This document shows, piece by piece, positions 8,136-12,652 of a stretch of 35,334 nt of DNA; position 1 is the stretch's first letter; every line of letters starts with the position of its first letter. Below the pieces are notes generated by a model that was not told where the DNA came from, did no database searches, and saw nothing but the letters and a program-made list of their open reading frames with translations. The position numbers were made by a program, and so were the translations under genes. Source of the DNA: a virus (Duplodnaviria > Heunggongvirae > Uroviricota > Caudoviricetes); IMG/VR virus record IMGVR_UViG_2713896776_000008. One strand, given 5' to 3'.

Positions 8136-8235
8136 CGTTGTCTCCTTTGTTCATGCAATGATGTTTGCCTTATGTGTGATAGATTATGGTGCAGATTTCC
8201 TCACCAGTCAACTTTAAGAGTGCAGAAATACTCAC
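8136..8235. promoter_or_regulatory. divergent early/repressor control region with direct GTGCAGA repeats (8189-8196, 8220-8227)
   Basis: 100-bp intergenic region between divergent ner-like and repressor genes; two GTGCAGA(T/A) copies 31 bp apart; AT-rich. Confidence 0.4.
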
Positions 8236-8574
8236 ATGATCGGTTTACGTATTAAAGAAGAAAGAGAACGTCTATCCCTTACGCAGCAAGGGTTAGCTGA
8301 CGCTATAGGTGTGGCGAAGAGAACTTTCATAGATTGGGAGAAAGATCGCACCTCCCCAACTGCAGTGCAGTTATCTGCACTATCAGAAATCGGCGTGGAT
8401 GTTTTGTATGTAGTTACTGGGATGAGGAGCCAACCTGTTGTTGCACCTTACGAGTCACAAGAAAAGAAAGAGTTAATGGACGCGTTCGACGACATGAGTC
8501 CCGAGCAGCGGAGGGCTATTCTTGAGGTCGGCAAAGTCCTCACTCAGCCAAAGCCCAGCAAGTTTGCTAGTTGA
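8236..8574 (+). CDS. XRE-family HTH repressor (c-repressor analogue)
   Basis: N-terminal HTH LSLTQQGLADAIGVAKRTFIDWEKDRTSP; divergent from early operon. Confidence 0.75.
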   Translation: MIGLRIKEERERLSLTQQGLADAIGVAKRTFIDWEKDRTSPTAVQLSALSEIGVDVLYVVTGMRSQPVVAPYESQEKKELMDAFDDMSPEQRRAILEVGKVLTQPKPSKFAS

Positions 8575-8662
8575 GCACACTGGTAAAAAGGGGCTGAAAG
8601 TAAAGATAATGTGGTCGATTTTGCTACCTTTCGCAGGCTAAGTTACAAAAAGAATAAATAGG

Positions 8663-8678
8663 GTTAGAACGTTCTAAC
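8663..8678. promoter_or_regulatory. perfect 16-bp palindrome GTTAGAACGTTCTAAC, candidate operator upstream of lipoprotein gene
   Basis: Read directly; centred about 28 bp upstream of the ATG at 8698, just upstream of AAGGA RBS. Confidence 0.45.
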
Positions 8679-8697
8679 AGACAACATAAGGATATAT

Positions 8698-9636
8698 ATG
8701 CGTAAGATGTTTTTGGTCTTAGCTCTGTCATTGCTGGTCGGTTGTGATAGTGGATCAGATGGTGTATCGGATTCTCCTTCTACTCCGTCCGTAGAATTCA
8801 ATGTAAAAACGGACGATTTGACTGTAAACAAGCTGTTGCCTGCTATCAAAAATCTACTGCCAGGGTTAAATCGGTACGCAGATCAGTTCGAAAATATTCA
8901 CGTTGAGCAAAATCATTGGCTCACTATCGTGTTTCATGTTCCCGAAAATGCAAACATACCCGCAGATTATCTCTCTCAGGGGAATAATTGCTTCATCGAG
9001 ATCAATAAAGAAGGTACAGCTATAAAAGTGCCTAAAAGAGCCTGTAAATCCGTTGCCCTAGATAGAGTTGTGCAGGATTTAGATAGCGACTATTGGTTCT
9101 ATTTCAATGCCGACGAATTAACCTATGTGCCGTATGATTTTGCAAAGTTAAACGACAAACAACGTGTAGATATTGGTGTCGCATATCTAAAAAAAATGTG
9201 GGATATCGTGCAGATGGTTAAGCAAAAAACAGACTGGCAACCAGATGATTTTCCTAACTACGCCAGATTGTTCAGGCAACTGGAGAGTGAGGGTAAGCAG
9301 TTTGTAATGGAGGGGGATATGTTCCCAGCTTATGGCTCTTGCAGGATGGCGGGGGCTAACGCTCAGCAATGGTGGTCTACACAAATTAGCTCACTTAAAG
9401 ATTTATCTTCAAATGACCCTCAACGAGCGGGTTCCGCTTTAAAACAAATTAAACGTCAATATGACTCATATCATGAAAGCGCTGTGAGTTGTGCAAAAGA
9501 AATCAGGCAAGCTCCACCAGTAGAGAAAAAAATGGAGGTGTTACCCCCTACGTCAGACAATAAACCTCCAAGAGCGGGCTGTCTGATGATATTTACACCT
9601 GATGACAAGACTAGCTGGAGCTGCCCGATAAACTGA
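8698..9636 (+). CDS. lipoprotein (312 aa), lipobox LLVGC with Asp at +2, AT-rich cargo gene
   Basis: MRKMFLVLALSLLVGC|DSG signal peptide and lipobox; AAGGA RBS; local GC visibly lower than flanking phage genes; several Cys pairs in mature part. Confidence 0.7.
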   Translation: MRKMFLVLALSLLVGCDSGSDGVSDSPSTPSVEFNVKTDDLTVNKLLPAIKNLLPGLNRYADQFENIHVEQNHWLTIVFHVPENANIPADYLSQGNNCFIEINKEGTAIKVPKRACKSVALDRVVQDLDSDYWFYFNADELTYVPYDFAKLNDKQRVDIGVAYLKKMWDIVQMVKQKTDWQPDDFPNYARLFRQLESEGKQFVMEGDMFPAYGSCRMAGANAQQWWSTQISSLKDLSSNDPQRAGSALKQIKRQYDSYHESAVSCAKEIRQAPPVEKKMEVLPPTSDNKPPRAGCLMIFTPDDKTSWSCPIN

Positions 9637-9638
9637 CA

Positions 9639-9896
9639 TTAGCAAGGCTTTCTGCTTTGGGGATTGGCGCTGATGGTCAGTCTTATCTCTCCAATGAGTA
9701 TTCCTTTCAGCTTATTTTCAGGGAGCATTCGTGGCGTTTTCTCCACCTGCTCAAGCGCGGCCTGCATCTCTCTTATTGCCTCTGCCAGATTGTCGGCATT
9801 GACGCTAAGTGTGTAGATTTTTGCTGCAGTTTCATGCTCATCGCAGGTTATTCCCATTAAGTATGAGTGTTTGGGTTTATTAGTTGCTGAACTCAT
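9639..9896 (-). CDS. hypothetical 85-aa protein co-transcribed downstream of dam-like gene
   Basis: ATG at 9896 with AAGGAG upstream, 12 nt after methyltransferase stop; stop lies 2 bp from lipoprotein stop (convergent). Confidence 0.5.
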   Translation of the reverse strand: MSSATNKPKHSYLMGITCDEHETAAKIYTLSVNADNLAEAIREMQAALEQVEKTPRMLPENKLKGILIGEIRLTISANPQSRKPC

Positions 9897-11272: not shown

Positions 11273-12009
11273 TGATGACCCTCTATATGTACTGGCCTCA
11301 GGTTGTCTGGGCCGTGCTGGTACTGCTGGGGCTGGGCATCGAACTGGCCCGCCACGGGCAGGTCCGCACGGGTAAGCACAGTTTCTGGTGGCAGCTCTTT
11401 GGTTCAGTAACGGTAGCCTGGCTGCTCTGGTGTGGCGGCTTCTTCAGTCAGGCCCGCGCAGCCCAGCCACCGCAAGCCGCGCTGCAGTATCGCGACGATG
11501 TGATCCGTAATGCCCGGCTTGAATGGGGAATGGCTGCGCCGGTGGCAGACTTCGCCGCGCAGCTGCATCAGGAGAGCGGCTGGCGACCTGATGCGGTCTC
11601 GCCGGTTGGCGCTCAGGGGCTGGCGCAGTTTATGCCCGCCACCGCCGACTGGATAAGCCAGCTGATGCCGGGGCTTAACAGCCGTGAGCCGTTCAATCCG
11701 GCATGGGCCATCCGGGCGCTGGTCAGCTATGACCGCTGGCTGTGGCAGCGCGTCAGCGCCGTCAACGGCTGCGAGCGTATGGCCATGACGCTGTCGGGCT
11801 ATAACGGCGGTCTGGGCTGGGTACAGCGGGACAAGCGGCTGGCCTCGCAGCAGGGGCTGGACAGCACCCGCTGGTTTGGTCATGTCGCCACGGTGAATGC
11901 CGGACGCAGCGCTGCCAACTGGCGGGAGAACCGTCATTATCCGCAGCGCATCCTGCACGAACTGGCCCCCCGTTATCTGACATGGGGGGGCGGCAGCTGT
12001 GTGGACTAA
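11272..12009 (+). CDS. endolysin, lytic transglycosylase (SLT domain) with N-terminal signal-anchor (SAR-like) segment
   Basis: QLHQESGW catalytic-Glu motif and GAQGLAQFMPATA; N-terminal weakly hydrophobic Gly-rich segments; start overlaps upstream stop (TAATG). Confidence 0.75.
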   Translation: MMTLYMYWPQVVWAVLVLLGLGIELARHGQVRTGKHSFWWQLFGSVTVAWLLWCGGFFSQARAAQPPQAALQYRDDVIRNARLEWGMAAPVADFAAQLHQESGWRPDAVSPVGAQGLAQFMPATADWISQLMPGLNSREPFNPAWAIRALVSYDRWLWQRVSAVNGCERMAMTLSGYNGGLGWVQRDKRLASQQGLDSTRWFGHVATVNAGRSAANWRENRHYPQRILHELAPRYLTWGGGSCVD

Positions 12010-12652
12010 CCTGCTAAAAAATCTGCCGTGGCGCAGTCTGCTGCTGGCAGTGGTCATAAATGCTTTTCTGATTGGACTTTATTACCTGGGCTACAAAAGC
12101 GGGCATGAAAACGCCACGCGCGACGGCGATAAGGCGATCAGTGAGTTGCAGTCAGCATTCGACACGTACAAAACGGAGCAGGCAACGCTTGAGAACGCTG
12201 CGCTGCGGGCCTGGGCAAAACGGTATCAGGAGCAGGTTGCCGCCGGGCAGCAGGCTGAAGCCAGTTACCTTGAGCAGATTGCTCAACTGGAGAGCCAGAA
12301 CAAACAACTACAGGGGCAAATTAACGATGTCACACAGCGCTGGATTGATGAAAAAGGTAAGAGCCATCCCATTGAGTGCGTGTTTACTCGCGGTTTCGTG
12401 CGCCAGTACAACGCCGCGCTCGGATATGTCAACGCATCCGTCGACACCGGTCATTCAGACTCAGTTTCCGCCGCTGGCACCGGCTCTGGGGCAGCGTCCG
12501 GGCGACCTGAAACCGCTGACGCCTGGCTACGCGACTCAGGCGTCTCCCAGCGTGACGTCCTCGCCAACATCATCGACAACGCGAAGCAGTGCCGCAGCTG
12601 GCGCAGCCAGATAAACGGGCTGCTGGACGAACGGGAAGGATTACAGAAATGA
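11999..12652 (+). CDS. Rz-like i-spanin (N-terminal TM, periplasmic coiled coil)
   Basis: TM LLLAVVINAFLIGLYYLGY then coiled-coil (LESQNKQLQGQINDV); GTG start; embedded +1-frame lipoprotein ORF. Confidence 0.6.
   Translation: MWTNLLKNLPWRSLLLAVVINAFLIGLYYLGYKSGHENATRDGDKAISELQSAFDTYKTEQATLENAALRAWAKRYQEQVAAGQQAEASYLEQIAQLESQNKQLQGQINDVTQRWIDEKGKSHPIECVFTRGFVRQYNAALGYVNASVDTGHSDSVSAAGTGSGAASGRPETADAWLRDSGVSQRDVLANIIDNAKQCRSWRSQINGLLDEREGLQK
12348..12614 (+). CDS. Rz1-like o-spanin (proline-rich lipoprotein) embedded in Rz in the +1 frame
   Basis: ATG at 12348; MKKVRAIPLSAC lipobox (LSAC) followed by proline-rich PSTPVIQTQFPPLAPALGQRPGDLKPLTPGY; lies entirely inside Rz. Confidence 0.5.
   Translation: MKKVRAIPLSACLLAVSCASTTPRSDMSTHPSTPVIQTQFPPLAPALGQRPGDLKPLTPGYATQASPSVTSSPTSSTTRSSAAAGAAR

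Follow-up and report, generated by a model that had tools for sequence, protein, structure and literature searches.

The 35,334-nucleotide stretch of DNA analyzed here, hereafter called the window (IMG/VR virus record IMGVR_UViG_2713896776_000008), is identified by its gene content as a BcepMu-like (Bcepmuvirus-type) transposable prophage, and directly after its repressor gene it carries a gene for a three-module lipoprotein (plus strand, positions 8698-9636). The gene is accessory but maintained by purifying selection, and its modules are persistently found behind repressor genes in unrelated temperate phages. Its product is very probably a periplasmic accessory lipoprotein made in the lysogen; the function that we favor, with a probability of roughly 0.4, is superinfection exclusion at the step of DNA entry, which the protein would exert from the periplasm while tethered to the inner membrane. 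We infer expression in the lysogen, inner-membrane location and exclusion from the sequence, its relatives and their genomic setting.

The Lipoprotein Gene and Its Signal Peptide

The gene, which is supported by the list of open reading frames (ORFs), by homologues and by the ratio of nonsynonymous to synonymous substitution rates (dN/dS), consists of 312 codons plus a stop codon and begins with an ATG. A Shine-Dalgarno-like AAGGA lies five nucleotides 5' of the ATG (8688-8692) and is kept in L059-L061, L012 and L026 (labels in L denote the compared loci or contigs, those in P related proteins). Comparison establishes that the gene is real and rules out a chance ORF, because full-length homologues exist at 48-98% identity and dN/dS is 0.12-0.17.

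The N-terminus reads MRKMFLVLALSLLVG-C16-D17-S18 (MRK-MFLVLALSL-LVG-C16) and forms a lipoprotein signal peptide (residues 1-16, positions 8698-8745) with all the features of a signal peptidase II substrate, namely a positively charged n-region, a hydrophobic h-region and a lipobox, L-V-G-C16, within about the first 25 residues. The lipobox Cys is kept in the alignment of all 16 full-length homologues. Asp17 at position +2 and Ser18 at +3 open an acidic linker rich in Ser, Gly and Pro, DSGSDGVSDSPSTP (residues 17-30, positions 8746-8787), which is predicted to be disordered and varies in the alignment. Direct reading of the sequence thus bears out the initial annotation, which had described a 312-residue protein with a clean lipobox and Asp at +2, and had placed it in the immunity region; the gene indeed lies directly after a divergently transcribed repressor gene of the XRE type.

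Modular Architecture and Predicted Structure

Three modules are fused in the protein, each of which also occurs alone or in other combinations. The alpha/beta N-domain (residues 31-135, positions 8788-9102) contains the near-invariant Cys98 and Cys116 and the four-helix-bundle domain (residues 152-272, positions 9151-9513) the invariant Cys215 and Cys265, while a Pro-rich connector leads into a C-terminal Cys-hairpin tail (residues 273-312, positions 9514-9633) with the pattern LPPT.DNKPPRAGCL...W.CP and the pair Cys295 and Cys309. This tail is the best-conserved segment of the alignment and is kept both in short proteins that have the N-domain and tail without the bundle (KP12_283, P0016, P0018, P0020) and in stand-alone bundle proteins. 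The AlphaFold2 (AF2) model of the full-length protein is confident, with a predicted local distance difference test (pLDDT) score of 80.5 and a predicted template modeling (pTM) score of 0.73; residues 1-28 are disordered in it (pLDDT < 50), after which come the alpha/beta N-domain, four long helices and a small tail of beta structure. For the N-domain the model reaches a pLDDT of 95, and the PDB holds no neighbor of it.

Seven Cys residues are conserved, namely that of the lipobox and three pairs distributed module by module (C98/C116, C215/C265 and C295/C309). The paired residues therefore fit an oxidizing, periplasmic location, and disulfides probably form within the modules. Relatives export the same modules by means of a lipobox, an ordinary signal peptide or an N-terminal transmembrane (TM) anchor, and a periplasmic location is consistent across the family because of these export signals together with the module-wise Cys pairs.

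The absence of any recognizable domain, which had been noted from the letters alone, holds in database searches: Pfam (E up to 0.01), NCBIfam, PADLOC and PDB sequences returned nothing significant for the protein or for profiles of each domain. Its sole family match is phrog_10002, of unknown function, in which profile positions 216-325 of 328 align with residues 26-134.

The Slot after the Repressor

The gene directly 5' of the lipoprotein gene (8236-8574, plus strand) is assigned as an XRE/HTH_3 repressor-like gene by Pfam HTH_3 (HTH, helix-turn-helix) and by PHROG repressor/CII-like families. It diverges from the operon of the Ner-like and transposase genes and is presumed to be the first gene of an operon that includes the lipoprotein gene. 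The position behind the repressor is widely shared. In all 13 IMG/VR viral contigs with a relative, its gene lies between the repressor gene and the Dam or lysis genes, and about 20 of 43 BcepMu-like genome loci, fetched via the neighboring DUF3102 gene, hold a family member in this slot. Full-length copies occupy it in Mixta, Pectobacterium, Dickeya and Xenorhabdus, copies with N-domain and tail in Pantoea, Serratia, Apirhabdus and also phage KP12, and copies of the N-domain only in Photorhabdus and Pseudocitrobacter. The Symbiopectobacterium copy (L026 3929-4865) is frameshifted into pieces of 229 and 129 amino acids, and three Photorhabdus prophages (L029, L031, L034 4136-4318) retain only N-domain remnants of 60 amino acids. 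Among close relatives the slot is empty in L014, L015, L018, L024 and L051 and filled with unrelated cargo in L013 and L019, and because of this the lipoprotein gene must be considered accessory, as the initial annotation had proposed; its homologues do not emerge as conserved core structural genes in the related phages.

The same slot recurs beyond the close relatives. A stand-alone gene for bundle and tail takes the equivalent position in prophages of Burkholderia, Comamonas and Chromobacterium and in Pseudomonas phage Komp_PAO1_1; two lambdoid prophage contigs have the bundle plus tail module after a CI/S24 repressor, in L009 overlapping the stop codon of the repressor gene; and P0047, a distant protein with an N-domain and a helical part, occupies the slot in a metagenomic transposable phage. 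Wherever the context is informative, the modules are found in the post-repressor slot of transposable or lambdoid prophages. They are thus persistently tied to repressor operons across unrelated temperate phages, while the gene itself is accessory.

In lambdoid contigs the gene for bundle and tail (L007 2163-2615; L009 3065-3547; L010 1972-2454) is followed by a gene with a staphylococcal-nuclease-like (SNase) domain; the two recur as neighbors in the immunity operon, and their products might cooperate on incoming DNA.

Co-transcription with the repressor gene is the simplest reading for the window, because no terminator is predicted between the two genes and no separate promoter was detected; a consensus scan and manual reading found no plus-strand promoter of the sigma-70 type in 8575-8697, although consensus scans miss many real sites. 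A plus-strand terminator after 9636 was likewise not found by consensus scan, which is a weak test. We also considered a perfect 14-bp palindrome just 5' of the ribosome-binding site, TTAGAACGTTCTAA (8664-8677), as an operator, and rejected it; it occurs once in the window, at a frequency that chance can explain, and is not conserved in L060, L061 and L026.

Selection, Divergence, and the Origin of the Low GC Content

The dN/dS ratio of the lipoprotein gene is 0.12, 0.12 and 0.17 in comparison with L061, L063 and L064, respectively, and backbone genes have similar values. The amino acid identity of the lipoprotein to the same three loci (86, 72 and 66%) tracks that of the holin, SLT and DUF3102 proteins, and lies far above that of the repressor (8236-8574), which is 48, 28 and 37%. 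Heteroimmune phages, with repressors that have diverged much further, therefore share the lipoprotein.

With a guanine plus cytosine (GC) content of 42.5%, and 40.6% at third codon positions (GC3), the gene departs from the window (55.5%) and from the flanking phage genes (52-65%); only 1% of 939-nucleotide windows are equally AT-rich, and the GC minimum of the whole window is the lipoprotein locus. The initial annotation had considered the gene more AT-rich than all its neighbors and hence recently acquired. The contrast with the flanking phage genes stands, but the AT-rich patch is wider than the lipoprotein gene, extending over approximately 8.2-9.9 kb, because the repressor gene (47.8% GC) and the adjacent orf85 (45.7% GC) are also below the window mean. 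Recent arrival, for its part, does not survive the comparison of loci. Homologues with identities down to 46-50% hold this slot too, and the backbone genes of their prophages have diverged to the same degree. In each of the 32 loci compared (19 of 19 plus 13 of 13), even in Burkholderia and Pseudomonas phages of 60-63% GC, the family gene has a lower GC content than its surroundings. Recent horizontal acquisition was therefore rejected, given the co-divergence with the backbone and the low GC content at all homologous loci; to judge from these sequence comparisons, the cargo is AT-rich as a lasting property, which is no mark of recent arrival. Of the properties by which morons are recognized, the gene has presence/absence polymorphism and deviant composition, while a promoter and terminator of its own were not found by consensus scan, again a weak test.

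Predicted Membrane Retention and Putative Partner Proteins

An Asp at +2 of a mature lipoprotein is the accepted signal for avoidance of LolCDE (PMC5727369). The window protein has this residue (C16-D17-S18), and its retention in the inner membrane is a fair prediction from the sequence. Asp+2, pointed out in the initial annotation, is not a defining feature of the family: it is specific to one clade, the 9 of the 16 family members that have C-D-[SG], the other 7 having C-G-D, and modules that stand alone are equipped with an ordinary signal peptide or a TM anchor.

The residue at +2 can be correlated with the gene content of the loci. None of the Asp+2 loci for which upstream sequence is available has an extra gene between the repressor and lipoprotein genes, whereas the Gly+2 loci, with the exception of L005, carry an intervening ORF there. 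One type of intervening gene encodes a tail-anchored membrane protein of 189-194 amino acids (L008 4421-4990, L048 4335-4916, L063 5405-5989, L065 5409-5990 and L066 5405-5989) whose homology to the phrog_10002 proteins (E 1e-20 to 1e-28) extends over their N-terminal half, their C-terminal half being the N-domain. Such gene fission and fusion implies that the tail-anchored protein and the N-domain function together in those phages. L025 3582-4556 belongs with the same fission/fusion set. A Pfam scan finds no recognizable domain in the tail-anchored protein; the precomputed Pfam label 'Flk_N' for the L008 protein was not reproduced by that scan and was not used.

The other type, unrelated to the first, is a membrane protein of 176-179 amino acids with one or two predicted TM segments and the motif GGN..GSIHVGSVVNIN. 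It is encoded between the repressor and N-domain genes in L004 (5423-5962), L035, L069, L067, L070, L071 and L020 and in the Photorhabdus loci L029, L031-L034, L043 and L050, a set made up of Xenorhabdus, Photorhabdus and related prophages. The window encodes no partner gene of either kind.

Functional Interpretation

Our preferred reading starts from an accessory lipoprotein that would be made in the lysogen, its gene most likely being second on the transcript of the repressor. It would be exported, lipidated at Cys16 and, through Asp+2, retained at the inner membrane facing the periplasm, where the flexible acidic linker would hold the three disulfide-stabilized modules in the periplasm, in a topology like that of the lipoprotein Ltp of Gram-positive bacteria. 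The tethered modules could then block DNA entry by binding a component that the invading phage either has to traverse or itself brings into play in the periplasm; candidate targets are tape-measure or ejection proteins, a tail-associated wall hydrolase and a host inner-membrane entry factor.

The idea of exclusion, or of another action at the envelope, gains indirect support from the recurrence of the modules directly after repressors in unrelated temperate phages and from one fusion protein, P0025, which combines a TM segment, the N-domain (E 7e-32) and two Lipoprotein_Ltp repeats (PF07553, E 5.5e-28), the latter matching the PHROG 'superinfection exclusion' families phrog_15667 and phrog_4980. 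We also count in favor of exclusion that the slot is empty in close relatives yet the gene evolves at the low dN/dS reported above, which makes it accessory but selected, and that heteroimmune phages have the lipoprotein in common. The N-domain is also followed by many other C-terminal regions that are unrelated, a distribution that suggests a constant adaptor with exchangeable heads.

Several results weigh against exclusion. The N-domain and the bundle resemble neither any solved structure nor any known exclusion protein, and Pfam (E up to 0.01) detects no Ltp domain in the window protein, while the one cluster with the Ltp fusion comes from a short contig without informative context. Since Asp+2 is missing from 7 of the 16 members, a specific inner-membrane location is not essential to the family. 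Moreover, no promoter or terminator of the gene's own was detected and its co-transcription with the repressor gene is presumed, there is no sign of the diversifying selection that an arms race might be expected to leave, and the holin gene is the immediate neighbor of the family gene in several relatives, which makes a role in the lytic cycle possible.

The arguments for periplasmic location and expression in the lysogen would apply equally to a lysogenic-conversion factor that alters the host envelope independently of phage entry, for instance by conferring serum or stress resistance as lambda Bor does, or by protecting against periplasm-acting toxins of competitors. The spread of the exact protein in clinical Klebsiella, Escherichia coli, Salmonella, Enterobacter, Citrobacter and Morganella, and strong purifying selection without diversification, would fit such a host-directed function; but the modules are also present in prophages of insect and nematode symbionts, plant pathogens, Burkholderia and Comamonas and in environmental metagenomes, which argues against a virulence role specific to a host niche, the only informative fusion joins an anti-phage effector, and neither Pfam nor PHROG links the protein to Bor, Lom or another conversion protein. 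We consider conversion possible though somewhat unlikely. Quite improbable, in our view, is a function in the lytic cycle, either as a periplasmic regulator of lysis (antiholin-like, or controlling the SLT endolysin or spanin) or as a blocker of the re-adsorption of progeny to lysing cells. The co-divergence of the gene with the backbone resembles that of a phage-cycle gene, and in L048, L065, L055, L057 and L072 the family gene lies directly 5' of the holin/endolysin cassette on the same strand. In the window, however, the oppositely oriented Dam operon separates the lipoprotein gene from the holin gene, and a separate Rz-like gene is present at 11999-12652; the lambdoid bundle plus tail module follows CI, far from any lysis genes seen on those contigs; and the five close relatives with an empty slot keep intact lysis cassettes. 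Identity with an Rz1-type spanin was likewise rejected, given the size of 312 amino acids and the position outside the lysis cassette.

The intervening membrane proteins raise another alternative, which overlaps with exclusion, namely that the lipoprotein is the periplasmic arm of a two-part system spanning the membrane. The N-domain may normally work with a tail-anchored inner-membrane protein bearing a cytoplasmic domain, as a sensor or adaptor rather than a simple blocker, and the Asp+2 clade may have lost this partner and adopted tethering instead. Consistent with this are the homology of the tail-anchored protein in five loci to the N-terminal half of phrog_10002, the second type of membrane partner in Xenorhabdus and Photorhabdus loci, and the division between Asp+2 loci without a partner and Gly+2 loci (except L005) with a partner or other extra ORF. 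Conversely, the window has no partner, which is therefore not required for its protein, the partner has no recognizable domain and the correlation comes from few independent lineages, so that this reading too appears rather improbable. That the gene is a decaying or functionless ORF acquired horizontally would agree with its AT-rich composition, the frameshifted copy in L026 and the 60-residue remnants in three Photorhabdus loci; it is extremely improbable, and effectively refuted by the selection analysis, given the dN/dS values, the conservation of seven Cys, the confident AF2 models and the occurrence of the exact sequence on 67 contigs across genera.

Exclusion by the lipoprotein of the window might be one instance of something broader. 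We regard as unlikely, though worth stating, that temperate phages of Proteobacteria share a widespread, unrecognized toolkit of periplasmic anti-phage modules in the post-repressor slot, in which a constant N-domain adaptor of new fold would carry interchangeable heads such as the four-helix bundle with the Cys-hairpin tail, Ltp repeats and others. The adaptor would either have a lipid tether or go with a tail-anchored inner-membrane protein, as a separate product or as part of the same chain. Such a toolkit would correspond to Ltp in Gram-negative hosts, its architecture being polymorphic and mix-and-match, and might signal across the inner membrane.

BcepMu-like phages are common prophages of clinical Enterobacteriaceae. 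To our knowledge, envelope-level superinfection exclusion in temperate phages of Gram-negative bacteria is known for just a handful of unrelated proteins, none of which comes from BcepMu-like transposable phages. If the exclusion reading is correct, the lipoprotein would account for part of the phage-resistance profile of its hosts, which matters for phage therapy, and would offer both a new fold for binding a component of phage entry in the periplasm and a tractable case of modular domain swapping, including the link to Ltp, in anti-phage envelope proteins. If it alters envelope physiology instead, it would be a widely spread conversion factor.

Distribution of the Family

A word-indexed search of 5.8 billion proteins retrieved only 16 clusters, comprising 15 full-length forms (48-98% identity) and one short form with N-domain and tail; those that are named are all from Enterobacterales and all 'hypothetical'. 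Profile searches of 1.84 billion representatives retrieved 149 proteins, which split into separate groups. Our census of architectures spans 163 related proteins, the majority of which (103) have the N-domain only. The combination of N-domain, bundle and tail found in the window protein is present in 16, as is the N-domain followed by unrelated C-terminal regions, and bundle plus tail alone in 15. Less frequent are N-domain plus tail (4), the phrog_10002 type with cytoplasmic domain, TM segment and N-domain (4), N-domain plus bundle (3) and the bundle alone (2).

The exact protein is recorded as 'MULTISPECIES hypothetical protein [Enterobacteriaceae]', its 67 contigs being distributed over the six genera of clinical enterobacteria named above. 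Searches of isolated phage genomes with the stand-alone modules by tblastn gave almost no matches; the family is essentially known from prophages and metagenomes alone.

Neighboring Genes and Prophage Setting

The genes for the Ner-like protein, an IclR-type HTH protein, the DUF3102 protein, the DDE transposase and an AAA+ (ExeA-like) protein lie on the minus strand. The layout of the divergent genes points to a control region (8136-8235) that separates the repressor gene from the Ner-like early gene; it contains a minus-strand sigma-70-like promoter, TTGACT-17-CATAAT (8211-8183), and may play a part analogous to the c/ner switch of Mu.

On the other side, orf85 (9639-9896, minus strand), an ORF of 85 amino acids, is convergent with the lipoprotein gene, their stop codons being 2 nucleotides apart, and is co-oriented with and upstream of the gene for Dam methylase; its product has no match in Pfam, PHROG, NCBIfam or PADLOC. 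It accompanies the Asp+2 clade of lipoproteins (L012, L026, L059-L062), and a homologue is found elsewhere in L015 and L017. Beyond orf85 follow the Dam methylase gene, on the minus strand, and then the genes for holin, SLT endolysin and the Rz-like protein (11999-12652) and the Mu-type late genes. A terminator-like hairpin with a T-run, GGGGGTAACACCTCC ATTTTTTTCT, is present on the minus strand at 9524-9548, within the 3' end of the lipoprotein coding region and about 90 nucleotides past the stop of orf85; it could end the Dam-orf85 transcript, but it overlaps the conserved coding segment KKMEVLPP and hence may be coincidental.

The same region is found at 99% identity in the chromosome of E. 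coli GON1437, where the prophage is inserted beside yahG; from the coordinate offset to that locus, the start of the window coincides almost exactly with the left prophage end next to yahG (window position 1 corresponding to L002 ~3502). It is also found at 99% identity in E. coli JCH8249, in a 40,540-bp record annotated as a plasmid (NZ_CP132021.1), the size of which suggests a transposable phage genome with its flanks that was assembled as a separate replicon.

Comparison with Known Systems

True homologues of the window protein exist among the PHROG families. The N-domain forms the C-terminus of phrog_10002, which has a cytoplasmic domain and a TM helix of its own in place of the lipobox, so that the window protein matches it over the N-domain and not over its full length; phrog_23218, phrog_29261 and phrog_30411 match the stand-alone proteins with bundle and tail. 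None of these four families is annotated, and none joins N-domain and bundle as the window protein does.

Lambda Bor is a moron lipoprotein that is expressed in the lysogen and has a composition unlike that of the phage backbone. The window protein shares with Bor and other moron lipoproteins its accessory status, its composition unlike the backbone and, presumably, expression in the lysogen, but it lacks homology to them, no promoter or terminator of its own was detected by the scans above, and its gene co-diverges with the phage lineage. Llp of T5 and Cor of phi80 and N15 are small phage-encoded lipoproteins of enterobacteria that exclude superinfecting phages at the envelope. Those are FhuA-binding proteins of the outer membrane with about 60-80 residues, whereas the window protein has 297 mature residues, three modules and a signal for inner-membrane retention, and matches no annotated PHROG or Pfam family. 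T5 Llp is also the topic of a bioRxiv paper (10.1101/2022.06.28.497910). The concept of the moron itself is treated in PMC3594210. P22 SieA, HK97 gp15, Imm and Sp of T4 and Glo of Vibrio phage K139 are presented as inner-membrane or periplasmic blockers of DNA entry that are often encoded near immunity genes (PMC3952083, PMC10883804). They have no detectable homology to the window protein, are TM-anchored or soluble rather than lipoproteins and have partly known mechanisms; any likeness in function would be by analogy only.

A close parallel is Ltp of Streptococcus thermophilus phage TP-J34. [quoted passage not shown] The window protein differs in having no sequence similarity to Ltp and no PF07553 repeats, in having a new alpha/beta N-domain and a four-helix bundle where Ltp has HTH-like repeats, and in its Gram-negative host with a periplasm. 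It has the same layout of lipid anchor, flexible spacer (Ser-rich in Ltp, acidic and rich in Ser, Gly and Pro here) and globular effector part, encoded in the lysogeny or immunity region, and its relative P0025 carries Ltp repeats at the position of the helical domain. The family is uncharacterized and its N-domain fold has no solved relative, while an envelope lipoprotein encoded in the immunity region is of a familiar kind.

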